Below, one piece after another: positions 1 through 57,425 of a stretch of DNA of 64,000 bases. Location of the stretch: NCBI GenBank assembly GCA_036172245.1, contig JAYWIR010000005.1:2604001-2668000 (forward strand), read 5' to 3'. Both the position numbers and the translations under genes were made by a program. Every line of letters begins with the position of its first letter. The first letter of the stretch is position 1. Origin of the DNA: Raillietiella orientalis. Lineage: Eukaryota. A model generated the notes under the pieces. That model was not told the DNA's origin. It saw only the letters and a list, made by a program, of their open reading frames with translations, and did not search any database.

Positions 1-2614
1 AAGTCCCTCGACGAGCCTTTCACGATGGGCGAGATCATCTCGGCCATCGGAAAGCTCAAGAGGCGCAAGGCTCCAGGGGAGGACGGCCTGCCCGCGGAGT
101 TTTATCAAACTTTCGCGGCCGAGCTATCCCCCCTGGTACATCAACTCACCTTGCTGATACGCGAGACAGGTGACGTTCCCGCCTCGTTTCGTTCGGCAAA
201 GGTGCGGCTTCTCCCTAAGGGAGGAGATCTGAGGAGCATGAACAACTGGCGTCCCATCACAATAGTGAATGCGGGGGTCAATTTGATACCAAAGATGTAG
301 TCAGAGCGTCTGAGAAGGGTTGCAAACCCCTTCATCAGCCCGGAACAGACATATGCTGTTCCCGGGCGAAGCATGGAGGCAAACCTGTTCCACGCTTCCA
401 CCTGGCTAGAGCTCCAACAAGAAAGGGGCTTGATGCGCAGCCGGAATTCCTGTGCGTCCGTAGGCAATGGGTCGGATGGTTGGGTGGGGGAGGGAGCCCT
501 TGCGGTCGCAGTCGACTTGCACAAAGCATTCCACTGCGTCGACCAGAAACTCCTGTTGGAGCTTCTGGAATGCTTGGGCTTCTTGGCCTCATTGTTAGCC
601 TATCTGCGCTCCAGCTGGCGCGACGCGTTGATCATTCTTTCTTTCAGCGGGCAGACCGTGCACGGCGTGGCGGAGCGGCGTGGGATACGGCAAGGAGACA
701 GCCTGAGCCCCTTGCTCTTCAGTACCTACTTTGAGTTGCTACTGAGAGCGTACAGGGGAACTCTGGCGCACCTGCCGCACGACTGTCCCGGTACGCCCGC
801 GGTTTCAGCGTACTCGAATGACCTTCTGCTGCTGCTCCCTATGTCCACCCCGGCTGCGGCGGTCGAGGAGTTCTTCGACCTGCTGCATCGGGGAACCGGA
901 CTTACGGTGAACAGGGCGAAGTCGTCCGTGATGTAAGTTGGTGCGGCGTGGGCAGGGCAGTAGGACTGGGCGTGCTTGGAGATCCCCACGGTGAGGTACT
1001 TCAAGTACTTCGATGTTCCGTTAAGGTACTATCCTTCTACGGAAGGGTGGTCCCGCTGCCTCCAGAAACTAGTGATGGCGATCGGCCCGTTCCAATTCGG
1101 CAGGTTCTTTCTGCAGATGTGGGCCGCGGTTTGGAACACATTTGCTGCTCCTCTCCTCCGTACCCTGCTTTTTGTTTGCTTCTCCACAGAGAGGATCAAA
1201 AGGCGGACGAAGGACCTCCTCCGTACCGCCATTTGGGACAACGGGAGGACCCGAGTCCGCTTGAAGGACTTGTTCTCTCCGCGTCGGGAGGGCGGTCTCG
1301 ACCTACTGACGCTGGAGCGGCTGGAGCTTCAGCTCCGGTTCCGGATGTTGGCCGTTGTGCCGGAGTTGTGGGGCAGCTTCTGGTGCGTCCTCGCACGTCT
1401 CCTCGTCAAGGAAGCCGCCGTCAAGGAAGATGGGGCTCACGTCCTTTCTTGCACTCCATCGCAGCCGCATCAACCAATATAGACTCCAGCTGCGGAGGGT
1501 GGCTGACTGGAGTAGAAAAAATTTAGGATGGATCTCCTGTCGCCCCGCGAACGGTAGTGTCCGGTTGCAGAAAACCGTTCGACATGGGCACAGAGCGGCA
1601 TGCAACGTGTCGAACAGGAACGACGGTTCCTGTTCGGACGCTACAGAAGTTGCACGCTTTGAGAGATCCTGGAGGATCCGAATAAGGGAGAGTGGTCAGA
1701 AAGAACCCTCCTCTCTGCTGCGCTGGTCTTCCTCATAAAAGATGTGGACAGCGATTTGCGGCGAAGTCAGTGGTTAAAGTCGAAATTCCCGGAATGGAGA
1801 GGAAGATAGGAGAGTAGAACATCTAGCAGACGCTGCGACTCCGAGTACGCCTCCCCATGGACTTCTGCGCTGAAGCGCGCTGCTCGATGTTCCAGTTGAA
1901 CTTCTGAAGTGTCTCCCAGTGCTAATGAATACCTTCACTCTCCTCTAAAAATGGCAGGAGTCGGCTCTTCTGTTGCAGCACTGGTGACTCCCGTGCAACT
2001 CCCGCCGGCACCATTGGACCTGGGGAGCGGTGAACCCCAATTGTGTTAGGTACGGGGTACGAGCGTCCTTCCCCCACCTCCTTGTGGATTGTGTTGCTCT
2101 CCTGCCCCTTTGGTTACGCTTTGCCGCGGCCATTGGAATCCCCTGCAGCAACCCCAGGGATGCCTTAAAAGCCCTCTTCGTTGCCGTCGCCCTTCGGCCT
2201 GCGGCCTCGTTAGCAGCGCTGTGCTTTCTTCTCGGGATCGTCGCCGCTTGGAGCAAGGCAACGGGAGGACCTTGAGATAAGGGTGCAATCCAGCACGCTG
2301 CCGAATTTTTGAGGTGGGTGTCGCGATGGCTTCACCTGTATCCAAGCCTACAGGAAGAGCTTGCCAGCATCCTGCAAAGGATGCAACGACCCCAGCAGCA
2401 ACAGTGATCCCTTCCCGTACCCTCCCACCTTTTCTTTTACTTTTGTTTAGTTTTTTGTTTATTCCTCTTCCCCCTGCTGCCGTGTACCGTACCGGTCTGC
2501 GAACCGGTGACCCGGCAGGCTCTGTGTTTCTTCGTGAGTAGCTGGAGCACTGGTCCAGCCACAGCGCGTGTTGAAGTTTGTTTTAAATTAAAGCCCCGGC
2601 GTCTCAGGTGAAAA
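1..2614 (+). mobile_element. Degenerate L1/Tx1-like LINE (copy A): RT domain, zf-RVT and structured 3' UTR; 5' part lies outside the window
   Basis: Broken ORFs carry non-LTR RT motifs: KAPGEDGLPAEFY and NNWRPIT (25-300); VAVDLHKAF, RGIRQGDSLSPLLF, AYSND (degenerate YADD) and GLTVNRAKS (373-936); EGGLDL (976-1482); zf-RVT-like NCVRYGVRASFPHLLVDC (2030-2275). T-rich 3' UTR with ATTAAA at 2587-2592. Many stops and frameshifts. Confidence 0.9.
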
Positions 2615-4990
2615 TCGAGTGCCTTTGGCAAATCTATTACGACCACAGAGGGCATCCGGCGACTCCGACTCAACATGGCCTCCTGATCCCTAACCATCTT
2701 TCAACTCAGGATTCGTTTGACCGACTGGCACAACTTTTTGTTGCAACCGAAGCCATGAGCTGACCAGGAACAGATTGGTTTCAACACTTCGTCCAGGAAC
2801 AAATTGCGTCTACTCCTTACTGATGAACGTTCCCGCCAACCGTCCCAGGCGTTCAATCCTTAGCTCCGGGAGCAGCTTGGCGTTTGTGTTGATTACGGTA
2901 ATCGGACGGAAGTTGCTTATCTTTCGGTGGACTCCTTTGGAAGGAGACATACTCTTGCTTATGGGAAGGAGGCAGACATCTTGCCTGTCTCCTGAATCAT
3001 CGTGCATATGCCACACACTAATGGGGTCAGCTCTGTTGCGAAACACTGTTCGAATATCGTCACCTGGTTCCTTCCTCTTCTTGAGCTTGCTGATGGCGGA
3101 TATCTCTCCCGTCGTGAACGGCTCTGTCAAGAGATCCCTCGTGACGCTTCCCTGATCACGGGAACGCCTTCAAGCAGCAATCGCTCTGTGAAATCGCATT
3201 CCGGTGGTACTTTCGCGTACAAGGAGGAGTCAAATTGGTGAGCCATGCATCATTCTACTGCCAAGGACCTGCGCTCTTGGTCCTGGTCGTGCATTAAGCT
3301 GGTCATCCTGGACTGTCCGACTTGTTATACAGCCCTGGCTTTCATCTCTGCCAGACGACGAACGTCTGGTCTTTTTTGCCAGCACCGAGCTTTGAGATAC
3401 GGGCGCTCGTTGAGCAATCTCTAAGCAAACCCGGCGAGGAGGCGGCCTACAGAGAAGCTCGTGCAGAACTCTCGAACCAAGCGCTTCGTATCGTCTCAGT
3501 CTTTGAGTTGCTGCACATTTACCTCTCGCAGGAATTTGAGGAGGTGTTTCGCAGCCTGCGGGAGATGGACTCAATCCCATGGTAGGCGCCACGTTGGAAC
3601 CTTTTCCGCGTGGGAGTAGTTCCAGCGCAATGCGGTCGTGGTCCGACAACGTCGTTCGCGCCTTTCCACAATACCTGACCCGCAAGCGCTGGTGGTTGTC
3701 GCGGAAAACATGATCGATGATGTCTTTCATGCCGATGAGCCTGCTCAGCAAGTAGCACGTATGCACTGCTGCACACAGCTCGTTAACCAGGTTGATCTGG
3801 TCTCTAGCCTTTCCTGAAAGCAGAGGGAGGTTCAAATTTCTTGCTATCAGGTGGGCTTTCCTCGCGCTTGCTTCCACCAACCATTCGCGCTTCAGGGCTT
3901 GAAGAATCTGATCCTCTCCGCGCTTATGTTGCAGCCGCTTGGTACCTTCAAGACGAGGTCGATCGACTCGGACCATTTGAGAATATGCTCGATTTTCTTC
4001 GTTGAACTCAACATCTCGTACCTCACTCTCCACGGTTGGTTTCAGCAAAAAGGCGACCCCTCACGAGTGCGTCGAGCCGCAATTCCGATGCAGCTTGCCG
4101 CCTACGATCAATTCAGTGTCCTGGATTTATTCTGCAGAAATCTTTTCGATTTCTTCCAGAAGCACCAGGTCGAAAGGTCAAAAGGAGGTGGCTGCGTCTT
4201 GTCTCCTGCCTCGCCACGCAACCCGTTACATTCCAGCTGGCTACATGCTCATGTAGTCTCCGACAGGAGCCAAGCTCACGTTACTTCTGACATGTCGGTG
4301 CTGCGGTTCCCACCTGCTGCTAAGGCGGACTCCATTCCGTGGAGGACTCCCGGAAAAAAATCTGTATCCTCTCGACTTCCGGAGCCGATGCATTCTTTCC
4401 TTGTGGAAATGCATCCTTCCACGGGGCCTTGGGCGTCTTTAAGGCGGTTTCCGTTGCTTCCGCTTCTCCGTTCATGCTTATCTTATCCGGTTGGTTTCGG
4501 AAGTCATGCTGAGATTATACTGAAGTTGTCCTCCGCGAGACGCCTCATGGCCTTTTTTTTTTGTGGCCTTTTATTTTCAAGGATGTTGAAGTATCAACCT
4601 TCTCCGAAGAGATGGCAGCAGCGTTGCAACGACCTTCGTTGCTGTTAATCAGTTTGACGATTACGCTTTCCATGGCTGCGTTTGCGACGTTTTCGATCGT
4701 CGCCTCGATCGCGCCAATCTGTTGAAGCGTCCTTCGACTTGCAGTCCTTCGACTGCTTAGCAATCGCTCTCGCGTTGCCGCGACTTTTTTCGTTTTGGGG
4801 AGGTTTTCTTCCTTTCTTTTTTGTTGTTGCCACTTGCCATCCCGCTTGATCGGTCATTTCTTCCCCTCTTCTGGAAGTTTGTTCCGATGAATTCTGGTTT
4901 GGCTTAGGTGGACATCTTTGCTTCCTCCCTTTGCTTCCGTTCTCTCCCTCACACCACCTCTTCGGTTTTGCGCTCGGAGGAAAGCTACAC
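2610..4990 (-). mobile_element. Degenerate L1-clade LINE: 5' UTR, ORF1-like leader, APE endonuclease and N-terminal RT, cut off by copy A
   Basis: Minus strand: ATG at 4857 (MTDQAGWQVATTKKKGRK); frameshifted APE start VASWNV(N)GLRG (4244-4214); FDLVLLEEIE (4174-4145); TLSDHDRI (about 3649-3632); RT EPFTTGEISAISKLKKRKEPGDD and NFRPITVINTNAKLL (2810-3130); VVIDLPKALD ends at the 3' end of copy A. Confidence 0.85.
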
Positions 4991-7900
4991 AGGGAACGAG
5001 GCTCTGCACGAGCGTGTGGTGTCGCAGTATGGCGGGAAAGGTGCGTAGCGTTCGCTCCAACAAGGAAGGGCGGAATCGGCCAACTTGTTCTCAAGTGGTT
5101 GGATTCAGTCGATTTTGTCGTGACGGACATCTACGCGCCGAGCGGCTTGCATCGGCGGGCCGAACGGATGGAGTTCTTCGGCGTGTTGGCTCGCTATCTG
5201 CGGAGCCAGGGTGCCGCATCTTGTAGCAGAAGACTTCAACGTCCGCCAGTTTTCCAGAGAAAACTGTTCCCTGGAGGGAAAGACGCGGGGGAACGCGATA
5301 TGCGCGTCCATGAACGCACGTTACTTGCTCGCCAGCAAACCTAGAATTAAAGGGTCCGTGGAAAAAATCTGCCTTTATGAGCACCTGCTTCCACGAGAGG
5401 GAAGGAGAGCAATCCACGATCTCCGACCATTCCAAGCTGGAGTTGTACGCACTTTTGAACAACGTTTGGAGGATACTAAAGGACTGGCTGAGCCATCCAG
5501 AGGTGGCGGAGCATTTTCGCCAGTACCTCCATGACTTCACCATTCGGGAACTCGCGGACTGGAACGATCTGAAAAGATGGGTCCTAGAGTTTTGCTACCG
5601 ATCTTGCTTACACCTGCTTGTCTGAGGTTTTGGAGAAAACGTGGCCAACGGCAGAGCGTTTCTGCAGGCCTGCACTTTCTTCCGAAGGTCCGGAGCCTCG
5701 TGGAGTACAAAGCGAGAGCTGAGCGCCAGATTCTGGAGCTGCTAGCCCGCCCGAAGACCAGGGCCAAGACCAATGGTCGGTCCCTGACGATGTGCGCCGA
5801 GCAGTATGACGTTACTACTCCTCGTTGTACGCGGAGGCGCAGACCGAACGCAGTCTTTCCGAGCTGCCTCTGCCGACGGGTACCCCTGCTGTCGACGAGG
5901 AGGAACGCGCGCGTCTCGACGATCCCTTCACGGTGAAGGAAATCTCTTCCACCATCGCGGGGCGTAAGAAGCGGAAAGCGCCAGGCGAGGATGGCCTGCC
6001 CTCGAAGTTCTTCCCGTGCTTAGCGAGAGTGCTCATCCGCCTGGCGCTGAGCCTCTCGACGCTGATGATGTCCCTGCTTCCATCCGCTCAGCGAGAGTAA
6101 GTCCTCGGTCGAAAGGCGGAGACTTGCGCCACCTCGACAACTGGCGTCCGATCACCCTCGTGGATTTGGACGTAAAGTTGTTCTCGAAGCTGTGGGTCGC
6201 GCAGCTAGGGAGGATTGCCGAGTCCTTGGTGAACCTGGAGCAGACGCATGCTGTTCCTGGGCGTTCCATGGATGCGAACCTCCTTTCGGGCTTTCCTGGT
6301 TTCAGCTTCAGGAACGCATTGAGTCGGACGGTCGCACAGCAGCGAGAGCTCCTGTGACTGCAAGCGCTAGTGCTGACAGACGAAAGGCCGGAAGTCTTGG
6401 TAGTCACAGTTGATCTGCACAAAAAGCTCAACTGCGTCAACCAGAAACTCTTCATGGAGCCTCTGGTGCTCTTCATCCTGCCGACCCACCTCTTTTTGTA
6501 CCTGCGCTTCTGCTGGCGCAACGCGTCAATGAACTTTTATTTCAGCGGTTCTCATGCGTACGGCATCGCCGTACACAGAGGTATCATCCAGGGCGACAGC
6601 TGCTCTTCAGCATCTAATTCGAGTTGGTACAGAGAGCATACATGCTGACGCTGGCCAACTTGCTGAGCTTCTGCCTGTGCACACCGTCCGTGGCAACCTA
6701 TGCAGATGGCCTGTTCTCCTGCCGCCCAAGATCACCCTGGCAGCAATGCTCGAGGACTTCGAACTGATCCGCCGGGATGTGGGTATGAGCGTCAACAGGA
6801 CGAAGTGCACGGTCGTGATAGTGGGTGCGTAGTGGGAGAAGTATCCCGACTGGAACCGCTTGAGGATTCCCACACACGGGTACTCCAAGTACCTTGGCGT
6901 TCCGTTGGGCGAATTCTGCTCGTCATAAGCGTGGTCGGCTTGCCTCCAAAAGGCAGGGATGACTCTCAGCCCGCTCCTCGACGACAATTTCGTCTTGCCG
7001 GAGCGGATCTCCAACTGGAACACTTTTGTTGATCTTCTCTTCTGTTTCTCATTTTTTGTTTGTCCAACCCCTCATTCGGTGAAGACCCGGGCGCAATGCC
7101 TCCTAAGTAAGGCCTTATGAGGCGCTGGAAGGTCCCGGAACCGCTTGAAAGAGTTGGCAGCTCCATGCAGGGACTCTGGCTTGGGCATCTCGATCATCGA
7201 GAAGATCGAACTGCAGGTGCAATTCCGACGTCTCTCTCTGTGTGGAAATTTGTGGCTTTCCCATTAGTATGCTCCAGCAAGCCACATCCTCCGCCGATGC
7301 GTTCGGGGCGCAGGACTTTTTTCGCTGCTGCCGCGTAACCTACGCCGAAGGACTGGATTCGGCTACCCCCTGGAGCATCTGTCCTTCCTACTGTTAGTCC
7401 ATCCATAGATCTCCTGCTGCCCCATAAACTGGAATGCCTGGCGACAGGAGGTTCTGGAGTCCTGGGTTGCCACTTTGGAAATGGACCCAGAGCTACTGCG
7501 ACTGCTACAGGATCTCTTACGCAAACCGCTGGGAGATCTGCAGATTGGACACAGTGGACCCGAATAGTTGTCACTCCCCAAGGCGCAGGACAAGCAATGA
7601 CAGCACCCAACCGGCAAGGCTGGAATTCTCCTGCAACATTGCAGGAGTTGAAAAACTCCCGAAGGTCTGCAAGACAGGCGAGCTGGTGAACGCCGCCATT
7701 CCTTGTTTCCGGGCAAAGGGACTTCTTTAGTGGAGTGGACTGGCCTGCTTGATGTGCCCCCGGAAAACTTGTTGTTCCTTTCTTTTGCGTGGACACCTCC
7801 GTGTTCCCGTTAAGATGGAAACACGATGTGCGACTGTTTCGGCACTGGGGATTCCAGTGCAATCAGCACAGACACCTGGCTTCCAGAGCAGTTTCCTCCC

Positions 7901-8460
7901 CGGAGTGTCCAGGTGCGAAGGGCACATTCCCGCACTTTTTGTTGGACTGCGATGCCCTCGAAGACTTGTGGCCTAGACTCGCTTCGACTTTCCGTAGACC
8001 GCAGGACACTGCAAGGGACTTGCTGAGGCGATTTTTCACAGAAAAGGGCTGAAGAAGGGCTCTGTGATCTCATGGGTTGCATCCTCGCCATAGTAACTGT
8101 CCACCTTGTGCTGGAATAAAGTTCCGTGGCGAAGAGAGACCGCCAGCATAGCAACAGCCCTCATATGGACAGCATCAAGGTAACATCACCTGACAGAACA
8201 AATCTCTAGGGGGATCGCTACCATCCGCAGCTGCTTCTAGAAATTAAGGAACGTCTCATACCAAAGAGCTTTGTGCCCACCATCTCTTCTTTTTTTATTT
8301 ATTCATCGTCCCCTCCCTTCGTTCCCTACTTCTGAAAAGCCGGACTGAGTGCCAGTGGTTATCCCAGATAAACTTTTTATTTTTGGCATTCCTTGTTTTT
8401 AAGGAGATCCTTTTTGTTCCCTCTTCTTTGTTTTATTTTGTTTTTGGTTTTTGAAATAAA
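4990..8460 (+). mobile_element. Degenerate L1/Tx1-like LINE ORF2 (copy B): APE, RT, zf-RVT, 3' UTR
   Basis: VTDIYAPSG...RMEFF, AEDFN and TISDHSKL (APE, 4990-5440); DPFTVKEI...KAPGEDGLPSKFF, LDNWRPITLVDLDVKLFSK, VTVDLHK, RGIIQGD, GMSVNRTK (RT, 5900-6830); ECPGAKGTFPHFLLDC (zf-RVT, about 7900-7950). T-rich tail ending in AATAAA at 8455-8460. Confidence 0.9.
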
Positions 8461-8462
8461 TG

Positions 8463-10200
8463 TCACCGCGTAACCGGGTTCGAACCTTGTGCTTTCACTT
8501 CAAAGGCAACACCGAAGTGTTCCAACAAAAAAGGGGGGACTACTAGTTTCTTGGAGGGCGCACTCAAAAGTTCGCTCCACCGAAGTAGTCCTTTCTCCCG
8601 GGAACAAGGAGTAGCAGCATCCACCAGAACGTCGCGTCCATCCAAACATCCAGGAGCTTTGTGATTTCCGCAATGGTGAAGAATTCCCCGCCCTGCCGGT
8701 GGACAGCTGTCGTTACCACCGGCAGGAGTTATCCCGGATGAGAAGCTTCTTCTGGAGCTCTTGGGACGCATGGGATTTTACGGCCGACTTCCTGGACTAC
8801 CTGCGCTCCTGCTGGCGCTTCACCATGATAAACATCACTTTCAGCGGCCGGCATGTGTAATGCGTGCCGGTTTGACGTGGCATAAGGCAGGGTGACAGCC
8901 TCAGCCCCCTGCTCTTTAGCATCTATTTCGAGCTGGTGCTACGAGCATACAGGGAGACTTTGGCAACCCTGCCGAACTCGTATCCCGGCACGCCCGCCGT
9001 GTCGGCCTACGCAGACGATCTTCTGCTGCTGCTCCCCGGGTCCACCCGGCTTCCGCTCTCGAGAAGTTTTCCGAGTTGCTACGCTGCGGGACGGGCCTGG
9101 AGGTGATCAGGACATCAGGGAGTGTGGATGCCAATTGTGCAGGGTGCGGGGAAAGGGAAACCTTCCCCCACCTCCTCATCGAGTGTGTCGCCTTCCGTCC
9201 CATGTGGGATCGACTCTCGTCGATTCTGAACATTCCGTTGGACGACTCAAAAGGCATTTTCCGTCGCCTCCTGATACGGGATGCCCTGCCAGCAGCCGCG
9301 TGTGTGGCAGTTCTCTGCTGCATACGCGGAATCCTGGAGAAGTGGACTGCGTCGAGGAGAGGACAAGCCAGAACGCCATTCACTGGGCAGTCCTCTCCAT
9401 GGAGAAGGCTTCCCGATGGCTCCGGTTGAGGACAATTCTACCGGCACTTGCCCGCATCCGAAACCGGATGCAGAGGACTTCTCGCGGCGATCAGTGATTC
9501 CATCCCTTCCCTCCCCATCCCATAAACTTTGTCCCCCCCGGCGTTTTTGTTTTTTTGCTCTTTTTGGGGGGGGTTTCCCGCCCTTTTTGCCCGTGTAGAG
9601 GACCTCACCGGTCTGCGGATCGGCAAGGTCAAGTGCCACAAGACAGTCAGAACCATGTGTTCTGACTGGAAAAAAACAAGAAAAAGACTTTATCATAAAG
9701 TTTCTTGTAAAATTTTAATAAGAAAGTCCCCGGTTTCTCCGGGTGAAAAACTGTCGTTTCCATCCAGCCGGTCGATCTTGTGAGCTCCAGCTCACCATTC
9801 CCTGGAAGGCAGGGAATTCCCAGATACGTTCCGGCGCACGGGACTTTGAACGTGCATCGATGTCAAAATCCTCGAAGCACTTGCGAGTTTTCGAACCTTG
9901 GAAGGAAGCCGTTGGCGAGGAATGTTCCGTTACTAACGAACGACATCACCGTGGAGACTTTCTGACTTCGGGAAAAAAAATCCGCGAGCTGCCGCAATGG
10001 TGTCGCGTGGACGAGAAAGCAAAATAGCTTTTAGAAGACCGCTCCAGGTTAGAAATGGCCCGGGAGAGTGCGGCGTTTGCGGAAACATCCGGATCCACTC
10101 TTCAGAATGAGGCGCTCCTTTTGCGAATGGGAATCGCTGGGAAAATCAGTTCCCCATGGCATTCGAAGGGAAGCTGCGTTTACCTACTCGAGCAGAAGAT
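8463..10200 (-). mobile_element. Older minus-strand LINE fragment (post-RT region), interrupted by copy C
   Basis: 8470-8630 aligns by eye to the reverse complement of copy B 7680-7850. Weaker similarity to the post-RT region continues after 9751. The right boundary is approximate. Confidence 0.5.
8721..9750 (+). mobile_element. 5'-truncated, internally deleted LINE (copy C) with intact YADD, zf-RVT and structured 3' tail
   Basis: GIRQGDSLSPLLF, then SAYADDLLLLL (YADD at 9008-9019). GTGLEVIRT is fused directly to NCAGCGERETFPHLLIEC. Degenerate TSD: ctgtcgttaccacc (8707-8720) and ctgtcgtttccatc (9751-9764). Confidence 0.85.
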
Positions 10201-23857: not shown

Positions 23858-24547
23858 GTAATGAAACTCTCTTTTTTCCCCTTTTTTTGCATGCTTCCAA
23901 CATGGGCTTTGGCGAGGCTTTCGAGTAAAGGATTGGGTCTGCTCTCCCTGCGAAATCTTCCCACACGTTGAAGCGAAATTCCACTCCGCCCGCAGCGCAT
24001 CTTCGCGATAAGACTCTTTGGTTCGAGCCACGCTTCTCATCTCAGAAGGTCCCGCGAAGCCACCTCGTCCTGAGCCGGAGCAGTTGGTCAGCACTGAGCG
24101 AAAGAATCCTGCCACAAGGAGAAAAAAAAAAAAAAGTTTCTCAAGGCAACCGCTTCGCGTCGTGGTGTACTTAGGTCGACAACGATGAGGATGAATGACG
24201 GTCCATCGATAACCATCATCCACCCATTCGAGGCGAATCCGCTGCAGTTTGTTAACCTGGGGCTCTTTTGCCGCGTGCTCCCTTCGGGTTGGTGGCCATT
24301 AACCGGCGCGAGCAAAGCACAGAGGGGGAGGAGGAAGAGTCGCAGCTTCTTTTTTTCGGGGCGTAAATTCTCCCTCCTCATGCAGATTGCTTGCCGGCGC
24401 GCCGCTGTCGAGCTGCTGGTCCAGTGATCCCTCTATCCTCTTCTATCCAGCTTGCCCTCGTTCCTTCGAGAATTCAGGTTTGCAAAGAGCACTCCCGACT
24501 ACGAATGCGAAGACAGCCGCCGCGTTCCTTTTCTTGAAACTCTGACA

Positions 24548-24722: not shown

Positions 24723-25144
24723 TCCACTCGCTGGCTGCATAGGGAAGACCAGTGGCTCCGCCCGCGTGCTCCTCAATCCAGTGGTCGATACTCTATCATC
24801 CCCTGCAGAGGGCTCCCGGTTCCGATTCTAGAAAGTCAGCGCCGCCTCGAAATGACGAGGAAGGGAGGCGCTTTTTTCCCTTTCTGGAGGCTCCCATGCG
24901 AGGAATAAGGGAGCAGCGGAGGAGTAGGGAGAGTCGAGGAACTCCCTTATCCCAAGAAACGCTCCTGGGAGACAAAAATCCCCACCACCCGCAGCGCTCC
25001 GCGAACGTCTGCATTCGATGCGCACTCATGACACACACACGCGTCCGTTGTCCGCGTGAACTACTCCGCTCGCAAACGGCGATCCCCTTCGGCACTGTTG
25101 ACTGCTGATTGACTAATTGTTTGTCTTTTTTTTCTCTTCCACAG

Positions 25145-25531
25145 CAGCGCCCTTTCCTCGAGATCTACACAGAATCCAGCAAAAAGCACCGCTCGCGCAG
25201 ATCCACGGGACTGACCTGCGACGAGAATTCCGCTGAAACTCGCTGCTGCCGCTATCCGCTAACCGTGGACTTTGTGGAGTTTGGCTGGGACTGGATCATT
25301 GCTCCCACCAAGTACGAGGCCAACTACTGTGCGGGAGACTGCCCTTTCTTCTTCCTCCAAAAATTCCCCCACGCCCACATAGTCCAGCAAGCGAAACCGG
25401 GAGGGAAAGCAGGACCTTGCTGCGCCCCCAGAAAGATGTCCCCGATCTCGATGTTGTACTTCAATAACCTCTACAACGTGGTCTACAGCACGCTTCCCGG
25501 AATGGTCGTCGATAAGTGCGGGTGCTCGTAG
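25145..25531 (+). CDS. MSTN: Myostatin/GDF11-like precursor, coding exon 3 (furin site and mature cystine-knot domain)
   Basis: Branch point-like gactaat (25111-25117), polypyrimidine tract, acag| acceptor. RPFLEI, RSRR (25190-25201), then the 109-aa mature peptide [33 protein letters not shown]...[17 protein letters not shown]...[12 protein letters not shown] with 9 Cys; TAG at 25529-25531. Confidence 0.97.
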
Positions 25532-30284: not shown

Positions 30285-33200
30285 CAGAATTTCGTCTGTG
30301 ATGGATTAGTACAAAGATCTCTGCTGTATCCCGATATCGGGAAAATTCAGCACCGAACCAAATAGAACCGAAACGTTGAAAGGACAGCACAAACCCAAGG
30401 CTGCTTGTGGTTTTTCTCTTCGTTGTTTCCGTGGAAACGTGTCCACACAGCTTGCTGACCCATTCCTGTTTGCACAGTGGACAAAATAGGATGTGTAACA
30501 CGTATTGAAAGGAGGACTGAGAATTCTCCACCGTCAGGGGGATGACCTTGTAATTGGTTTATCCATTGATTGAGCTGTTTTCCCTTTTGCATTGAAGAAA
30601 GAGTTTTGAATTTCAAGAGAAGAGTTTTTTCGTTTGTTTGTTTGTTTATTGGAAAATGGAAAGCAGTTGATTATAGCGTGCCCTGAAGGAATTTCAGCCT
30701 CCAGATACGTAGTTATCAAACATCCTTACAGAATGCATTCTACCGCTTTTAAAGAATCAAGGTCCACTGCTAACATTTTCTCTCGCATCTAAGAGGCTGG
30801 AAATTTGATACCGTTCTCATTGCTGAAGTGATCCCTCGTCTGGAGACGGTTCTTCAATATGTGTAGTCGGAAGAACGAAAGTCGTTGTCTCCATGAATCA
30901 TTTTTAAGGGAAATAATGGGGGGAAAAACTGCATGCTGTAAACGAGAACGCATGAAATAAGGAATACAAGCAAATGGAAACCACATCATCATACCTGGAC
31001 CGCGTCAGCTCACGAACGCACTCATTTCACGTCTGCTCCCCAGCCTCCCTTCTCGTCTCTAGCTGAAACGGAAATTTGCCCACCAGGAAGGAGCTTTTGC
31101 TTTCTTTTACACGCTCTCCGATACTTGTAATTTAGCCTGTTGCCTGGTTGATCTGGTTCTCCTTGAAAGGTGCTTTCCGCACATCATGCTGAAGATGAAG
31201 CGGAGAGATTTGTTGAGATGAAAATAAATCGAAAGTAACTTTTCCCGAGCAACATGCATTGACTACAGTCTCTCTTCACGTTAGGTCTAAGAGCATCTAA
31301 CACTGAGAACAATCTTCTTCCTTCATCAATGTCATCTGATGAAGAAAAGAATAAATTTTTTTTTTTTTTTCTTTTAGTTTACTTTCAAAAGCCCGACTAT
31401 TTTGTGTCCCTTTTTTCTTTTTTCATTCTCCGCTATAAAGTTGAATTCGCATGAATCTGTCCCATTATCTACATATATGTTGTTAACACATACTAGCATT
31501 TTCAAGAAAAAAACGATTGTGTGTTTTTTAAAAGCTTATGTTAAACGCCCAGGAAATTTTACGTCTCTTTAGCTTACTGAGTGTAAAACGTTTTCGGTGT
31601 GTAAAACATCATTTCAGTACATCCATTCTCAATTAAACACTGAATCGAAGATTTCATTCATCCCGTTATGTATTTATTCATTATGTTTGTACATAATTTA
31701 AAATCAAATAATGTACTTGTTGAATAAACGTTTACATGCACCCTTAATATAATAATTATAATTGTATCATGGAATAGACAGTGGAATCTGATCTAATCAA
31801 TATCCTAAACTGATAGAATATGCCGTGTTCATATACACTACTCTTCGTACATAGAGTGGATTCATATCGATAAGAATTTGCATCGTATACGATAGGGTGA
31901 TAACGATTGCTAGGTTCACCAATGGAAACATCTTGTATGTGTCTGGTATTTATTGAATTTTCAAGATTTCGTTCTTCAGGTAAAATCGAAAATTACAGAC
32001 GGTAGGCACTGGTCAGGATTAGTAGAGTTGATGAAGTAGTTTACTGAGAAAAACGATGTTAGATGAGACTAAATGGGAGGACACTTAGTGTCATCGACAT
32101 GTTCCTATTAATAATAAATAACTATGTTCGGATTCCATAGACTTCAAGAAATTCAGAAATTAATTTTCGTCTGAATATGAGGAAGATTTTTGAGTATTTG
32201 CTCCCCCTCCGAGATCCTCAAAGCAGTTCCTTCAGGGCAGAAGACTCTAAAGCTTGTCTCTTATTCTGTTTCACCTCAGGGAATTTCCTGTTTGCAGGGA
32301 AGCTGTTTTTCTTTTATCCAATTGCTTTTCATTTTCTCTCTTTCTTTCTTTTTTTTGACTGCTTACTTGGACTTTCCCTGATGCTGAGACATCAGGGTAT
32401 TTTATTTTCAATTTTAATGGCACACAGTTTGCTATGCATTCCCAATTAAAATATTTACATTAATTGTGAATGAGGTTACAAGGTCTCATAATGTAATTCA
32501 TGAAACTTTTTGGTCCTTTTCCTATTTTATGCTTCCTCATGGTAACTGTCGGAGAATCCCTGGTGGATCCCTGCCGCACTCGTTTACGGCAGCCTCCTTC
32601 TTCAGGAGTCCCTCCACGACCTCCTTAGCTGTTGACCATTTTCCGTTTTGCGCGTTCCGCCTTCCGATGGCAGCCGCTGTGATGAAGAATGCCTGGTGAG
32701 GTCTTGGTGGCACGTTTCGTATCGGAATTTGTCTTCGCACTTTTCCCAGAGCTTCATTGGTGATGCTTTCAAAGATTGAACACTCCGTGCAAGTTCATTT
32801 CTTTTGCACTCTGCGCCGCTGTTTGCCCTCACCCTTCTCTTTTTCCCACAGGATCACCTGGTGTAAGAGTCCTTCCAATGCTGATTGCCCGGCGGTTGTC
32901 CATTGTTCTTTCATCTATTCCGCTGACTCCTTACTTCCAGGAGGAAATTTCGCATTGTATAAATACGGAGAGCAAACTCTCCGTATTTATACAATGCGAA
33001 ATTCCGGTTTCATTTTGCTTATGTACCCCGTGCAAGGGCAGTAACACTTTGTGTGGTTTCCATCGCGACTCGGCATTGCTATGCATTTGGGCATTTCCGA
33101 TTGCACTTAGGCATTTTTATTATTATCATTATTATTACCATTATTATTACTCCTTCCCTGGACAATATTATTCCCCATGAACTACACAAGAGGATCTCAC

Positions 33201-37000: not shown

Positions 37001-37613
37001 CAATAAAACCTGCGCATTTCAGTTCGGGAGTGCCGATGCTCCCTCGAAGGACCCAACGTTTCGCGAATGCAGAAGAGTTATGTATGCTGCTCAAGACTCT
37101 GAGTTTGCCCATCCGGCCTCAACTTATGTGTTCCATCCTAGTCTTAGGGCACGTTCAAATCTGTAATATTTCAGACCGTTTAACTCAACGGTGCTTTCGC
37201 AAATGGCGCCCTCGTGGCAGAGGCGTCGTCCAGGTGGCAGAGCAGTCCCATCTTCCCCGAGGCGCACTGGCAGTGAAAACTCCCATGTGGTCTCTGCAGG
37301 TCTCTCCGTTGAAACAGACGGCGCTGATGCAGTTGTCGTTTCCTTCGCAGTCCTGCTGCACCTTCGTTTACAGACCACCTGGAATGGTTTTCGATCTTCG
37401 CTCGCTTAGTCATCTCCCAAAGGTGGACAGTTCAAAAGGTGACAGTGAGAAATATTGAATTTCAGCTTCATTTCAGCTTGGAGCGCAGCATCAATTGAGA
37501 GAGAAGCTTTTGTAATGAATCTTCTCATTTTGTTGCTGCATGTGCTTTCTTCTTGGCAAGCCCTCCTGAGACAGGGGTTCTCAGTCACAGCATGCCCTCA
37601 ACAAAATCGCCTC

Positions 37614-38623
37614 GGAACTACAACTGCAGCTCCGAGAGATCCTGGGGGATCCTGAGAAAGGCGCTTCGGCGGGAAGAACCTCTTTCGCTGCAGCGCTGCT
37701 CTTCCTCAGGAAACACATGGACAGCAGCATTGTGGCGAAATTAGAAATTCTAGTGGACATCTCCGGAAGGGATAGAAGATTAGGAGAGTGGAGGACGGGA
37801 CTGCTCTCGGATGCTGCGACGCCAAGTACCCCACCTCATGTACTTTTGCACTGAGACATGGTAGTGGGTGTTCCGGAGGAAGACCAGCAGTGTCCGCCAG
37901 TGCTTATGAGCAGACGCAGCCCCCCCCCCCTTGAAGTGGCAGGAGTCGGCGCTGTCAGTGTTGCACTGAGTCTCCCGTGGAACTCCCGCCTGCACCACTG
38001 GACGCGGGTGCGTGTGGATCCCAACTTTGTTAGGTGCGGAGAGCGTGAATCCCTCCTTGATTGCTAGTGGATCGTTTTGCCCCCCGGCCTCTCTGGGAAC
38101 GCTTTGTCGCGATCCCAGATATCCTCGGCGGCAATCTCAGGGACGCTCTTAGACTCCTCTTCGTGTGCGACGTCCTTCGGCCAGCGGCCTCGCTAGCAGC
38201 TTTGTGTTGCCTATGCGAGATCGGCGCTTCATGAAACAACGCAACGGGAGGACCCAGCCATAGGGATGCCATCCACTTTACTTCGCTGTCTGCTTCATCA
38301 GCATGGCAACGCGATGACCTCACCTGGACAGTACTGTCCAGCAAGACCTTGAGAGCATCCTACAGAAGATGCACAGAACCGCCCCAGCGCAACATGATCC
38401 CTTCCTGCGCCCCCCAAAATTTATTTATCTTTACTTTTGTTTCTTTTTTTCTTTTTTGTTTGCCCCCTCTCCTCTGCTTCCGTGGTGAATCTCAGCGGTC
38501 TACGAACCGGTAACCCGGTAGGTTCAGAACAAAAAGCGCGTGATTGGACCGCTGGTCCAACCACAGATTTCGTAAATGTTTATTTGTTTTATAAATAAAA
38601 TTCCCGGTGTATCCGGGTTAAAA
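37614..38623 (+). mobile_element. 5'-truncated LINE (copy D), ORF2 C-terminus and 3' UTR, bounded by a perfect 16-bp TSD
   Basis: Homologous to copy A 1640-2614. TSD tcaacaaaatcgcctc at 37598-37613 and 38624-38639. zf-RVT remnant NFVRCGERESLLDC. Ends aaataaaattcccggtgtatccgggttaaaa. Confidence 0.92.
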
Positions 38624-39664
38624 TCAACAAAATCGCCTCACCGTCTCCCCTGCCTGCTAACTGAGAATGTCACTAAGGATAGCTATTCTCTGCGGTAAGC
38701 AGTGTTGGACAAGAAATGGCGCATTTTTCAGCCCTTCCATCATCAGAGTATCTGCAGAGATAAAGGGTATGGCGCACACACGTGACGATCCAATTCTGGA
38801 AAATGAATTTCCCGGGCACACTTTGCTTGGGAGTATTTGAACCCTACGCGCAAGACTGGCAATAATTGGAACTCTGCTGCTCGCATTTGGGACTACTTGG
38901 GTAATGATCCCAAGTCATTAATGCCTCGATGTTCTGTATGTATGTATCCCAGCATTTAAGCAACGTGCTTGAAGTGACACAGAAGTCGCTGAAATTTTTT
39001 TGGAGTTGAAACTAGGCAGAACAAAAAGACTATTCCCCCCCCCCCCCTTCCCTGCTTGGACCCCTTTCTTATTCAAGTGTTACTGCGCAATAGTGAAAGA
39101 TTTTGCGAAAGAGATGCTGTTATTCTACGGACAAGAAGTAGACATCTCGAAACTGAAGGATGTACGGAACGCATTCCCTGTCATTTCTTCTTTACCTATG
39201 CTTCTTTATAAAAGTAAAACTCTGTGGAATTTCCTCACCTTCTGGAGGTTTGGAAATCTGAAATGTGAGATCATTATCGTTTTTCCCTCTCAACGAGTGA
39301 GGCCGCATGAAAATGAATTGGTGAGGAGAATAAGGACAACCACATTATCTCGCTAAAACCATTGCGTCCGTAAGGACAGTTGCTTGCTCAATAAGATGTT
39401 TCAGCTTTTCTTTCTATGAGAATTATTATCTCCATTTTTCACTCTTCACTTTTTTTTCCCTGGTAAGATTTTGGTGGCAACGCGTGCGCGTAGATGAGAG
39501 GAAAACGATTCTTCTCAAGCGGATGAAGAGAAGTGAAGAAATGTCCTTTATGCCTAGGGATTTAAAGAAACAGACTTTTGCAAACCTTCAGATATCCATC
39601 GGAAATTTGATTCCACGATGTAAAAAAAAGAGTGGGCTCAGTGAAGAAACGACTGGAGTAACGG

Positions 39665-40620
39665 AATGATCTCCAGAAGAAAGAGAAGCCCGCATCGGAG
39701 GACTTGTGGTTAAGGCTTCCGCGCGTGGCACCACGCGTCGCGGGGCAGAAACTGACGCCATAGCGCCGTTGGGTTCCGAGTTTCTCCTGCAGTGGCGCTG
39801 GCTGGCCTAATCATTCGGGCGTGGCGCCGGCGGTGGATTAAGCCGGAGGCCCCCGATGAAGGCCGGAACAATGGGAAATTGACCTTGGGGTCTTCCCAGG
39901 AATAAAGGAGTAGAGAGTTCCCCCTCCGGTCGTACAACGGAGAGCGGACCCCTCCCACCGAAGGGGTCCCTCCGGTTTCAAGATGGAACAGGAGCCCTCA
40001 CGGGCACCTCTCCAGTTGTCTCCAGGAGCGGATCCGCCCCGGTTGCAGGGGGACCCTCCGAGTCGTCGCCTCTTCACAGAGTGCACAAGGAAGCAAGCGA
40101 GAGCGATCCCCCTGTGGGAAGCTGCAGCGCTCCTTCTGAATTTCGGAAGCGTCCCTTCGGGGTTCTCTTCAGAGGAGTGAACAGGAGCGATTCCCTTGCG
40201 GGTTCCCTCCGGAGAAGAAATTCCTTCTCCGGGTTCCCTTCGGAGAAGTTGAAATGGATAGGACCATCCCCCATAACGGGGGGTGTCCCTCCGGAGAGAA
40301 TGAGGAAGGAGATTCCCTTCGCGGTTCCCTTTTGGAGACAACCAGGGTGGGAGCTGCGATCCCCCCTTCCGGGGGGGATCTCTCCCCAAGCGTGAGAGGA
40401 ACGGGCTCCGAGCCTTTCCTGTATTCATAGGGAGGACCCCATCCCGGGGTGCCCCCTATCCTGAAGAATTACACTGAAGAATTACACGCGCACCTGCGGG
40501 GTTGTCTCAGGGGAGAGGCGTGGAAACAAAACAGTGTTTAAAGGAGCCACGTGCGCCGCAAGGCACGCGACCGGCTCTTGAGGCGCACTTAGCGAACCAA
40601 AAAAAAGAAGCAGACTCTGC
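39665..40620 (-). repeat. Interspersed repeat family 2, copy 2
   Basis: Similar to 13950-14750. Minus ORF 39838-40428 starts MNTGKA at the conserved ATGAAT. Confidence 0.75.
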
Positions 40621-43600: not shown

Positions 43601-46595
43601 TAGAAGTGCATATGAAGTTTATGATGTCCAGAAACCCTTCTTGCAGACAAATGTGATCCTAAGAGAGATTGAATACAGGTATAGAATATGTTTAGCAAAT
43701 CGATGGGTCCAGTGGTCCATCAGGCATAAAAGGAATTATGAGAAGTGTTCTTAACAGAAAGCTCTTAAAATAACTAACCAAACTAACTACTCAAACAAAA
43801 CTAACCCTTATAGTCTTAACTCCTGTCAGCGCACAAAAATTACCACTATCCACCAAACTCCCCTTGACTGACACTAATTTAAAATTAAAATTCCCTAATA
43901 CTAACAAATTATACACTCCATTTACTATCAATGTTGCCACCCCCAATCTCCTGCACTAACAATAAATCAAACGCTTTCTCAATCTCATACCAATATAACA
44001 CCAACTACTACTCAACCCAACTAAAAATCTACCTGCTCAACACATCCCCCAATACTAAAATAAATACACAACCACAGAAATGGATGAAATGGAACCACGT
44101 GGAGTGCCATATCTTCATTCACGACTTTGATTTAGACGAAAGCAAAGTTGAAACTCATCTGAGTGTGTGCAAGTCAAGGGTACTTTCCCTGAGTCCACGA
44201 TTTCACAGAGCATTCCCTGCTCATGGCAATGGGGAAAGGGTAAGAAATTTCTCTAGTGGTTGCAGCGGTTGCAGTCAGTTTGTGAATCTTCTTCTGCTAT
44301 GATGACTCCTGATCACATCAGGAGGCGAGCAGGCTAGAGCAATTTGCTTTTGCCTTTCTTCCCATATTTTCAGTGCAAATGCGCACCCTCTTTAGTGCTG
44401 GGGGGGAAAAAGTAGGTTCCACGGACGCTTTCCACATTCACTGCTTTTATCATAATGGCAGGTATCGGTTTGAAAGTGACCGTGCACGAATTGGATTGGG
44501 GACATCCGTGGCAGGCTGTAACTAAGAAACCGAAACAAACCGGGAAAACTGTTGGAAGTCCCTTCATTCCCAATGCCGTAGGTCTAGTGTAACAAGTGCG
44601 AAACATTTTGCCTATCTATCCGAAGCAGCAAGCAAAACAGATTCGTGTCTGTGACGGACGCACGAGAATTCCACAAAAAAAAAAAAAATCCGCTTCTCGC
44701 TAAAAATGCTACATTTGACGCTACGTTCATCTTGTATTTACATGCTCACGTATTTGTACGAAGACCAAAAACAAGTTGGAGAAAATTAATCTTGTTTATG
44801 TTTCCTGGATGAAAGGGAGCATCTGCATCCAAGTTAATTCTGCAATCTTGGCGCTACAGGCTTCATTTTTTTCTTTTTTTTGGCAAAGATACAGTAAAAT
44901 TATAAAGCTGAGCTTAGCATAAGCTCGGTTTGACGTTCGAAAGGAAAGGACGGCTGCAGCCATCGCGTGCGTTCCCATTATCACTGGGATAAATAATTGA
45001 GCACGAAAACTTGGACTTTTCAAGCTAAATGCTTCTTTTCTTCTTCTTCCTCCCCTTCTTCTTCTTCTTTCACTCTTGTGTTGGACAACTGTAACTAGAG
45101 CCTAGCTGACTCTTTTTCTTCGGTTGAAGCTTTGGCCTTTCTGTTCATCCTGATTTGCATTTTTCTTCCACACAGGGAAAACGGTGTTCTCGACATGGAT
45201 CGGAACTGTACGAAAGTTCCGTGTGCTTTACAACTAGCCAAATGTACAGATGGGAAATTTCGAAATTGTCAAAATGAAAGATTCGCAAATCAGTGGTTTA
45301 TTAATCGCTTTTTGGAAAGCAATAAATTCCCCTTTCCAAAGATGTTAACCACTTCGGTACGGAGGCGGTTTGCTGGCTGGCAAAATTGGATCATCAATAA
45401 ATTCAGATCACATGTAAACATGGGAACTTCCACTGTCAATGATTTGTTCACAGAACTGCTTATAGCTTTCCTCTGCAGTTTCTGGAAAAATCAAAAGGAT
45501 GAAATAAAGACAGAATCAAGAACGCGGAAACACAGAAATCACCGACGAACGAGGCAGACAGTGAGTAATTGGGAATTGAAAAACAATCCTTCTCAATAAA
45601 TATAGGAAAACAGTGTCACAGTGGTGTAAGAAGTGAACAGAGGAGTGTACTCATGAACAGAAGCGAGGATTCAACTAAACAACAGATGTATCCAGCCGCT
45701 GTGCTAAACTGGAAAGTTCCATTCGTACAGCAAGCTTAGGAACGTCCGAGCTGTGCAAACGGTTTCTGTTCTGTGACTCCATATTCCCAGTTCCCTTGAC
45801 CATTCTCAAATCGAAAACTTCAGCCGAAACTTCTTCCCTAAACTCTTTAACGTATCCTATTTCTTGGAGAGCCTTCCAGCTTCATTCCTGGTCGATCCCT
45901 GGCGGCTATCGCCTCCTCCCAAATTTGCAGCCTTCTCAGTTTAGATGACCTTAATCGATGGATTGAATGATCTCTTCTGAATTATGATTTGTTCCGCTCA
46001 TCGGTAAAAGGAAATTTGAAAGTCAATGTCATTTTAACCGGTTTCTTGCTAAAGGATTATAATGGGATAATTTGCAGTCTAATAGATGCTTGAAAACGTC
46101 TTTGATGCAGTTTTGCACCCCTAATCAGTCGGAACCTTGAACTTTTGTGGCTGGATTGCTTACCAGAATGAACATTTAGCAGATAAATTCGGTTCAAAAG
46201 CATCCGTGCTGTGAGATGCTGAATGGGCATCCAAAATTCTTTTCATGCAGAGTATGAAATGATATAAAGAGGTTCTATCCTTTTCATGGAGACTTTTGTT
46301 ACATCCACCATTTCAAAAAACAGAAAAGTCTCTACAGTTTCTAGGAACACTCATTCTTTTTTCTTTCTGTAAAAAAAAAAAAATTGCCCGATTTTGGATT
46401 TTCTCCATTAGTGTTTCATTGAGATAATCAATTAACCAGTCATCCAGGACTAATAATGGAGACTTTACTGTAGAAGAGTTTATATTTTTAACAAAACTTT
46501 TTGTTTGCAGATCACATAAAAAAGCATATCTTTCATTTCGAAATAAAAAAAATTCGTTATCTGTGCTTCTGTGATTTAGGAACCGTGAGCTCAGG

Positions 46596-47384
46596 TACGA
46601 GACCAATCTCAAAATATCCGATCAGATATAAAAAAGAACCAATAAGAGAAACAGAAATGCATTCGAAGTTCGAAACACATACATCCTCATATCATTTGCC
46701 TACGTAGCCACCATTTTTTTCTTGAAACACTTTTGATACCGTGGAAGAAGCTCATTGAAAGCGTCTGCATGAAAGTCCGCCGCCTGGGGGCCCAGCCAGA
46801 CAGCTCAGCAGCACTGCGGTTTTCAGCTCTCCACTTTCCTGGAATGGTTGGATGCAAGCCCCTTCTGGAAGTGCAGAGAGGAAGGCGTGGGCGGGACTGT
46901 GAGGTGGGCGATCGAAAAGTTCCCATTCGAATTTCCGAATTGTCTGGAATGTGTGGACAGCATGTGTTGCCAGGGAGCGCGTTGTCGTGGAGGAGAAGAG
47001 CAATCCCTGATCTCAGCATCCCACTTCGTCGGTTCTGCTGAATGACACGTCGCAGTTTTGAAAGTAGTTCCATAGTGAATTGAGAAGGTGATGGTTGTTC
47101 CAGGCTCCATGAAGTCCTTTTGGTCCCACACGCTGCTTCCCGCAAGTGGAGAGCTGAAATTCGCAGTTCTGCTGAGCTGTCTGGCTGGGCCCCCAGGCGG
47201 CAGACTTTCACGCAGACGCTTTCAATGAGCTTCTTCCACGGTATCAAAAGTGTTTCAAGAAAAAAATGGTGGCTACGTAGGCAAATGATATGAGGATGTA
47301 TGTGTTTCAAACTCCGAATGCATTTCTGTTTCTCTCATTGGTTCTTTTTTATATCCGATCGGCTCTTTTGAGATGCGCCTCGTA
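46596..47384. mobile_element. Non-autonomous mariner derivative with 241-bp inverted arms made of two transposase 3' ends
   Basis: Arms 46596-46836 and 47144-47384 are near-perfect reverse complements that begin TA-CGAG. Each encodes the mariner C-terminus (DFH..AF..LLPRYQKCF..NGGYVGK-stop). The core has LLHDNA and KFEWELFDRPPHSP on the minus strand. Confidence 0.92.
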
Positions 47385-50634: not shown

Positions 50635-51960
50635 GATCCTTTTCTGGCAAGATCCTTTTCCCGCAAGGGAACCTCTCCTTGCTACTCCTCTGGAGAAAGG
50701 GAATCCCGAAGAGACGCTTCCAAATTTCTCTGAAGGCCTTTTCCCGAAGGGAGCAGTGCACCGCTCGATACTCTGGAGAGGTAGCAATCAGCTCCATGAT
50801 ACTCGATGAAGGGTTTTCCCTCGTAGGGGAGGGGAGGTCTCCACTTTCACAGCCAGAGGGGAATCCTGGGGAGCTCCTCGATTCCTGGCAGGACCCCGGA
50901 GGGTCCACTTCCAATCCCTGCTAGTCAACGGAAGCATCCAGTTTCCGCCGGTGCCCTTCGCCCCTTTGGGGACGCTTGGCCAAGACCCTTGGAACTCCCG
51001 GAGACGTTGTAAAGCACCTCTTCCTGCGCGACGCCCTCACGCTGGCCTCATCCCTCCCTAGCAGAGCTTTGCTGCCCACGCGGCGGGACCGTGGCTGCAT
51101 GGAGCAACGCCAGAGGCCAAGAAGATAGGGACGCCATCTATTTTGCTGTCCTCTTCATGAGGACAGCGTCAAGATGGCCCCATCTGAGAACCATAAAACA
51201 GGAACTTGCCGGCATCCTGACAAGGATGCAGAAGACTCCCTCCAGCACACAGTGATCCCTTCCCCAACTCGCAATCCCTTCCTTTTTTTTCTTGCTGTTT
51301 TTTTCTGTTTTGTTTTTGTTTTTTTCTTTTTGTTTGGCTCCCCTTCTCCTGTGCTGCTGAGGCGAACCTCGCTGGCCTCCAGATCCCGGCAGGTTCCTTT
51401 TCGTATTCATAAGTAACGTGACAGGATCGCACGTCCTACTACAAACACGTATGCTTATTTGATAAATAAACGCCCGGCGTGTCCGGGTGTCAACCAGGGC
51501 CTCCGCACCCGGAGCCTTCAATTCAACCAGTGTCATCTTGCGGGAGAACTCGAAACCCACGAAACATCCATGTCTCTGGCGTTGATCCTTCCCCGGGCGA
51601 GATGCGAACCTGCAACGGGAGTGCCGCGAGAGCTGGGAAAACAGAGTCCCCTCCGGGCGGTCCTTCCGGAGAGAATGAGGAGAGGTTTCCATCGGGGTTC
51701 CCTCCCAGCCTTAAGAAGAACGGACTCGTTCCTCCGGAGCCCTTCCTGAATTCATAGGTGGCTCCCTCCCGGGGTCTCCCTATCTTGAAGAGTCATACAC
51801 GCACCCTCGGGTGGAACAGTGTCGGAGAGCTTTCTGAGCCCCTAGGCGAACGATACTGCAGCACGCGCATACCAAAAAAGGAAAACCCTAAAAAAAAGAA
51901 AAAAAAGAAAGCAGGATGGGAAACAGCGAAACAAAAAAGAACCCAAAAGGATTTCCAGCA
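50635..51960. repeat. Interspersed repeat family 2, copy 3: internally inverted and interrupted by a LINE tail
   Basis: 50635-50947 and 51488-51632 are reverse complements of 14400-14125 and 14125-13965. 51640-51960 is co-oriented with 14400-14750 and has the minus-strand ATGAAT at 51755. Confidence 0.75.
50948..51488 (+). mobile_element. Short 5'-truncated LINE 3' end (copy E)
   Basis: ORF2 C-terminal similarity to copies A, C and D; conserved acagtgatcccttccc, T-rich tract and hairpins; AATAAA at 51465-51470; CCCGG-cgtgt-CCGGG at 51473-51487. Confidence 0.85.
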
Positions 51961-57386: not shown

Positions 57387-57425
57387 ATCGTTCGACTGGT
57401 TCCCTTTGGGAACCAGTCGAACGAT
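57387..57425. repeat. Perfect 18-bp inverted repeat with 3-nt loop
   Basis: atcgttcgactggttccc-ttt-gggaaccagtcgaacgat. Confidence 0.95.

Follow-up and report, generated by a model that had tools for sequence, protein, structure and literature searches.

How does an L1-group LINE that leaves hardly any A tail in the genome choose the base at which its reverse transcription starts? The question is raised by copy D, a 5′-truncated element in a 64,000-nucleotide stretch of the Raillietiella orientalis genome (GCA_036172245.1, contig JAYWIR010000005.1, positions 2,604,001 to 2,668,000; hereafter the window). A first-pass annotation of the window had proposed that four diverged copies share a 3′ end made of three covarying hairpins instead of a poly(A) tail. 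The strings that it had quoted (T-rich tracts, hairpin 2 arms, hexamers and CCCGG-N5-CCGGG) were all located where it had placed them, and tblastn of the window with a full ORF2 query placed an ORF2 remnant on the same strand upstream of each of the four. The four copies stand, and a fifth, copy B, had been overlooked. The window therefore contains five decayed copies (A to E), which belong to a large radiation of L1-group LINEs (Table 1). The host is most likely an arthropod, since a myostatin/myoglianin-like gene in the window has its best named matches in insects and Daphnia. The 16-bp target-site duplication (TSD) of copy D is exact, and it fixes the element end six bases past hairpin 3, as had been claimed.

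Table 1. Coordinates of the LINE copies, of the parts of copy D and of other features in the window
Feature	Position	Strand	Description	Basis
Copy A	1..2614	+	RT to tail, cut by window start	RVT_1 match, tblastn
Copy B	4976..8484	+	APE, RT, divergent tail 8455-8484	tblastn
Copy C	8737..9749	+	ORF2 with internal deletion; tail end TGAAAA	tblastn
Copy E	51037..51493	+	ORF2 C-terminus; tail end TGTCAA	tblastn
Copy D, 5′ TSD copy	37598..37613	+	16 bp, identical to 38624-38639	
Copy D, ORF2 C-terminus	37614..38397	+	zf-RVT region, 5′-truncated, frameshifted	tblastn to ORF2 P0001
Copy D, ORF2 stop	38395-38397	+	TGA	stop position
Copy D, 3′ UTR tract	38420..38476	+	T-rich, then C-rich	sequence, alignment
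Copy D, outer stem	38477..38521	+	CTTCCG 38477-38482 / CGGTAG 38516-38521	
Copy D, inner hairpin	38494..38511	+	CUGCGN hexaloop, main covarying element	
Copy D, hairpin 2	38540..38564	+	11-bp stem, variable loop	
Copy D, GTTTATT	38578..38584	+	complement of poly(A) signal	
Copy D, poly(A) signal	38594..38599	+	AATAAA, first A 30 nt before element end	
Copy D, terminal hairpin 3	38603..38617	+	CCCGG-N5(6)-CCGGG, stem invariant, loop variable	
Copy D, six-base 3′ end	38618..38623	+	family form TGNNAA; element end	
Copy D, 3′ TSD copy	38624..38639	+	starts TC, typical for the subfamily of copy D	
Hexamer, copy A	2587		ATTAAA	
Hexamer, copy C	9717		AATAAG	
Hexamer, copy E	51465		AATAAA	
CCCGG-N5-CCGGG, copies C and E	9729; 51473		degenerate in copy A	
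APE-RT fragment	2672-4210	-	same LINE group, antisense, between copies A and B	tblastn
Myostatin/myoglianin (GDF8/11) gene exons	~21800-22265, 23429-23900, 25109-25531	+	best named matches insects and Daphnia	
Inverted repeat pair	46585-47395		252 bp, 93% identity, around frames like mariner-type transposase fragments	by eye
Pieces of another repeat	13986-14745, 40138-40330, 50660-50786, 51479-51953		diverged; include 3′ flank of copy E	
Short near-perfect palindromes	32946-33003, 57387-57425, 62852-62911		possibly MITEs	

Full-length units of the family measure 5.5-5.9 kb; 5′ truncation occurs, and TSDs are of ∼10-17 bp. ORF1 lies upstream and codes for a protein of 554 amino acids with two CCHC-like knuckles, read by eye, and no Pfam match. 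ORF2 codes for ∼1200 amino acids, and its product P0001 matched Exo_endo_phos (7e-9), RVT_1 (4e-21) and, under Pfam's cut-off, zf-RVT (1.3e-3). The closest solved structure was human L1 ORF2p (E 5e-45, against 2e-13 or weaker for R2 proteins), with CR1, RTE and I outside the comparison. These domain matches and the best structure bear out the earlier description of an APE/RT/zf-RVT element, and membership of the family in the L1 group is supported at the level of its sequence. Database relatives, fish proteins among them, are ∼30% identical in the RT region; the exceptions are two metagenomic proteins (70%, P0167, and 65%) and a fragmented turtle protein (36%). In a quick IQ-TREE tree of 68 RT rows, the family joined an open node through a long branch (1.6) and did not fall within the fish group containing BAC82609; the Tx1-like label of the first-pass annotation is thus not established. 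The tail motif was absent from the seven distant loci of a second metagenome scan, and the first metagenome scan returned no relatives. No SINE sharing the tail was found in a sample much of which had been chosen by ORF2 or tail similarity: 178 of 196 tails had ORF2 directly upstream, and several others were short TSD-bounded truncations. Full-length copies of different subfamilies (L072, L073, L156 and L158) start near a common (G)GACGTGT-like motif, perhaps an internal promoter.

Within the window alone, the 15-nt palindrome motif at up to two mismatches was not above chance (25 found, 17.9 expected). Over the 210-Mb genome, the exact pattern of AATAAA, hairpin and TG gave 1784 matches, against 0 for the reversed pattern, and ends of the form CCGG-N5/6-CCGGG-TKNNAA numbered 3066, against 8 in the control. 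With a pattern that allowed four mismatches and required the T-rich tract, we assembled 204 non-redundant tails (44 clusters), a sample of which one part was picked by the hairpin pattern itself and another by similarity to ORF2 or at the DNA level. Of the 204 tails, 41 were accompanied by a direct repeat of at least 11 bp, a TSD candidate. This repeat started at the predicted end (offset 0) in 22 cases and at offset -1 in 8. When the expected end was moved 30 nt downstream as a control, 15 of 203 tails still gave a repeat, so that noise accounts for part of the remaining offsets. Within 14 nt of the hairpin 3 stem, the longest run of A comprised 1-6 residues in every one of the 204 tails.

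The first-pass annotation had reasoned that, if young copies carried long poly(A) tails, the short tails seen here would reflect decay. Twenty stretches around long-ORF2 copies were fetched and 16 of them were read in detail; nine of the 16 copies score ∼96% alike over the last 1 kb. All 16 finish in 2-4 A, and therefore decay does not explain the short A tail.

A poly(A) signal is nevertheless embedded in this compact end. An exact AATAAA was present in 164 of the 204 tails and missing from the other 40; its first A lay 30 nt before the end in 137 tails and at 29-31 nt in 159. The complement, TTTATT, precedes the signal by no more than 50 nt in 103 of the 204 tails (15 in shuffles), and is seen in five of the seven largest subfamilies. 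The pair flanking this motif was G-C in 41 of 80 tails, with no covariation. GTTTATT could pair with AAUAAA in a fourth helix and so hide it, or it could act as an upstream U-rich element.

Genome-wide, only 30 hairpin matches were followed by at least six A, and those followed by at least eight fell at four distinct loci (eight matches, five of them overlapping at one locus; three in the control), with runs of 8, 11, 12 and 15 A. At three of these loci a TSD directly follows the run, of 11, 12 or 15 A, and the 5′ TSD copy lacks it. One locus has an exact 11-bp TSD at 1953 nt and another a 16-bp TSD with two mismatches at 1943 nt; at L192 (G000:C6:5698611-5698639) the insertion comprises little more than hairpin 3 and A12, with flanking repeats of 10-11 bp and an ATAAA microhomology at the 5′ junction. 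The fourth locus showed no TSD within 7 kb. The A-run between hairpin and TSD at three loci suggests that the RNA is likely polyadenylated and normally copied from the poly(A) junction. On these three loci, it is simplest to suppose that poly(A) is added to the template RNA a few bases past the hairpin, and that copying rarely begins inside the tail. Slippage of an A-run after insertion is a possible alternative source, and would need to start from 3-4 A. The formula "instead of poly(A)" is hence accurate for the DNA copies and, given copies with 11-15 A inside the TSD, probably wrong for the RNA.

We lean, with no great confidence, towards the reading that the RNA is polyadenylated just behind the terminal hairpin, and that ORF2p, seated on the tail in its folded form, begins to copy the RNA at the poly(A) junction and not inside the poly(A). 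The RNA would be cleaved and polyadenylated ∼21-24 nt past AAUAAA, and ORF2p would bind the folded tail, with the CUGCGN loop of the inner hairpin read as an identity signal. Hairpin 3 would serve as a spacer or ruler that fixes the start point six bases past the last stem. The target would be nicked at a subfamily-specific site, and priming would proceed without a T-rich target pairing to the poly(A). The ORF2 protein may in this manner select its own RNA via the structure of the tail. As described in PMC10830416, human ORF2p grips an RNA stem that helps to set the start of target-primed reverse transcription (TPRT) and needs ∼15 nt of poly(A), and unpairing of the template stem leads to heterogeneous TPRT products. 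By analogy, the human spacing may speak against initiation at the junction, since ∼15 nt of single-stranded A reach from the stem to the active site there, against 6 nt here. Human L1 also copies its long single-stranded poly(A), whereas the family studied here leaves the tail uncopied and its target is not A-rich.

A fixed end of this kind, together with rare long-A copies, would equally be produced if the RNA were polyadenylated and then deadenylated or trimmed until hairpin 3, or a protein bound to it, halted the nuclease, with reverse transcription starting from the free 3′ end. We regard this as the main rival explanation, though on the unlikely side. The geometry of an end trimmed up to a hairpin resembles the stem-loop end of histone mRNA, and an invariant stem with a free loop fits recognition of the stem by a protein of the host or of the element. 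Trimming would also sidestep the conflict with the 15-nt spacer that PMC10830416 gives for human ORF2p. A nuclease should nonetheless scatter the ends more widely than is seen, with 30 of 41 TSDs at two neighbouring offsets, and trimming alone does not account for a conserved CUGCGN loop 100-150 nt upstream. Genome sequence cannot separate trimming from initiation at the poly(A) junction.

The hallmark of the L1 group, a 3′ poly(A) with an A-rich target start, was not encountered: four loci with at least eight A stand against 3066 short ends, and the flank after the end started with AA in 2 and with AAAA in 0 of 204 tails. PMC5203782 defines L1 by its poly(A) tail. The second base of the flank was C in 131 of 204 tails, and the first base depended on the subfamily (chi-square p 4e-32, seven clusters), with TC, CC or AC as subfamily-specific target starts; dispersed subfamilies have just 2-4 target bases in common. 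A preference for target sequences is a Tx1-clade trait, stated for Tx1 in PMC4494074, and here it takes the form of these subfamily-specific starts and of two subfamilies at fixed antisense sites in ORF2. A young subfamily (L073-L078, L082, L083 and L088; e.g., G000:C5:2479000-2488999) lies antisense at one site in the ORF2 linker of a related LINE, at the LQDWD codons, with a 17-bp TSD and head-to-tail tandems. A second (L072, L079, L080 and L086) lies antisense at the KAFD codons in the RT of diverged relatives. Like Tx1-clade LINEs (Tx1 in Tx1D, as covered in PMC4494074), the family has an APE-RT-zinc finger ORF2, a CCHC-type ORF1 and fixed targets in other repeats; its RT, at ∼30% identity to the fish proteins found, formed no supported grouping with them. 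L071 is inserted in sense orientation at the RT motif of the KAFD site. At L061/L062 and at L157, a second copy abuts the 3′ end of an earlier one, whose target start it reuses.

Subfamily-specific starts (TC, CC and AC), and a common 17-bp TSD in one young subfamily, are also what would be observed if transcription read through into the target-site copy of the donor, with reverse transcription starting internally where the RNA pairs with the nicked target, so that the structure only marks the RNA. A TTTATT/AATAAA helix could weaken polyadenylation, and fixed internal initiation is described for a Penelope-like element in PMC11167929. We judge this improbable: the long-A copies have their A directly behind the hairpin, endonuclease preference explains 2-4 common target bases, and none of the 41 TSD candidates gave evidence of 3′ transduction.

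Covariation within the tail, as the first-pass annotation had claimed, was indeed found, and it lies in the inner CUGCGN hairpin and in hairpin 2, where compensatory swaps separate the subfamilies. In the window, the loop reads CTGCGA in copy A (2497), CTGCGG in copy C (9613) and, decayed, CTACGA in copy D; in copy E it is partly deleted. An exact CTGCG occurred in 122 of the 204 tails, where 29 were expected. The inner hairpin was located by anchoring on CTGCG with a weak 5′ context term, without pairing information, on 42 cluster medoids (two clusters had no anchor, and several anchors were visibly misplaced). At its five stem positions 71.9% of cells were paired, against 60.5% when permuted and 22-49% in slid controls, with 33 double-change cells against 13 and 0 of 2000 permutations as high. 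The closing pair alternates between U-A (12) and C-G (17). In hairpin 2, seven of the 11 pairs carried double changes, with U-A/A-U/G-U and U-A/C-G swaps, as had been claimed for it.

A four-helix model was drawn by us from a MAFFT alignment of 51 A/D/E-type tails taken from the clusters. The model had 79 double-change cells where shuffles had 33, and none of 500 shuffles reached that figure; like the other shuffle counts, this one is inflated by the kinship of the copies and is not a probability. Besides hairpin 2, double changes were found in four of six pairs of the inner hairpin, in one of six of the outer stem and in none of five of hairpin 3. The outer stem is 88% paired and nearly invariant; it is kept in A/D/E-type subfamilies and missing from the inspected C-type tails. 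On two of five measures the model did no better than shuffles (12 against 11 pairs with changes on both sides, 44 against 41 further pair types). An unbiased MI/APC ranking placed only 2 of 28 model pairs among the top 30 of 11628 (ranks 13 and 14), and was discarded as structure evidence, being dominated by the relatedness of copies. RNAalifold retained only four pairs, all from the inner hairpin, and the folding z-score of the hairpin-2 window did no better than that of a control window upstream, each having 4 of 42 values below -2. Decay after insertion weakens all of these structure tests.

Two of the hairpins first proposed as covarying fared differently. For hairpin 1, the arms of copy A (ctgccg/cggcag) and of copies D and E (gaa(t/c)ct/aggttc) form different, non-homologous helices in different registers; in the D/E register, over the 51 A/D/E-type tails and with no C-type row, 68.9% of cells were paired against 70.5% in shuffles, and 495 of 500 shuffles were as high. 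Hairpin 3 is conserved instead of covarying, with no double change at any pair. As its stem is invariant we infer its fold, for which the predicted pairing probability ranged from 0.0 to 1.0 across ten copies. A contact between UGCG and the loop of hairpin 3 is possible and shows no covariation: 85% of cells pair, 31-59 of 500 shuffles reach its scores, 556 of 2000 permutations were as high in the 42-tail subset, and the contact is broken in the C-type and 6-nt-loop subfamilies. A search for Rfam and ribozyme matches returned 16 at E ≤5, none of them overlapping a tail. The traits of stringent-type LINEs, a 3′ stem-loop whose stem shows compensatory changes and whose loop is conserved, are thus present in the family, and come out weaker in the z-score, MI/APC and RNAalifold tests. 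Although hairpin 3 does not covary and several structure tests were weak, it is very improbable that the terminal palindrome works as DNA (a binding or termination site), or that A tails decayed, with the hairpins incidental, since pairs of the inner hairpin and of hairpin 2 are swapped in a compensatory way from one subfamily to another, and decay is contradicted by young open-ORF2 copies without A tails and by TSDs that abut the six-base end.

Structured 3′ ends have been described in other LINEs. According to PMC3472496 and PMC3747384, the monocot 1a L1 lineage (LINE1-1_ZM, with ZmSINE2/3) has a conserved, covarying 3′ hairpin, and in Chlamydomonas L1-1_CR and SINEX-3_CR share a tail with poly(A) at its end. 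The family resembles these stringent-type plant and algal L1s in its L1-clade membership, its conserved 3′-end hairpin with compensatory stem changes, and its conserved loop. The Chlamydomonas pair and almost all flowering-plant L1s end in poly(A), and one hairpin is described there; unlike them, the family here, from an animal host, has three to four helices and a six-base fixed end, lacks the A tail, and yielded no partner SINE. In zebrafish, dependence of L2 elements on the stem-loop has been demonstrated, and ZfL2 needs its own stem-loop (PMC4176376). UnaL2, ZfL2-1 and ZfL2-2 share with our family a 3′ stem-loop and DNA copies without poly(A), and in L2 the loop confers specificity, according to the same source. 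L2 differs in belonging to another clade and in ending in short tandem repeats (TGTAA in UnaL2, as given in PMC3747384), whereas the family here has no terminal repeat; binding in L2 was shown experimentally (PMC4176376), whereas the present family is known from its sequence alone. Structured tails are thus already known, from L2 and from some plant and algal L1s. What appears to be new is an L1-group end without poly(A) and without repeats: in the literature searched, outside which Repbase lies, no animal L1/Tx1 family was found whose end lacks poly(A) as well as tandem repeats.

A broader and more doubtful proposal is that priming has become independent of polyadenylation in an animal L1-group lineage, by means of a compact tail (a CUGCG loop that may dock on the CGYR loop of the terminal hairpin, and a GUUUAUU helix hiding AAUAAA) that sets ORF2p exactly six bases past the last stem. 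If this is true, the poly(A) would be skipped and A:T pairing would not be needed, and subfamilies would be free to evolve their target sites, such as fixed codons in one another's ORF2. Reverse transcription that starts at one defined base without an A tail would also be of interest for retrotransposon-based insertion tools. The published cases of structured L1s that we found are from plants and one green alga, and poly(A) is kept at least in the alga. The family in R. orientalis bears on whether the L1 clade began as structure-reading (stringent) and was later relaxed to the reading of poly(A), and, as one tail design recurs in dozens of its diverged subfamilies and some copies have open ORF2 frames, this question is directly testable against the solved human ORF2p.
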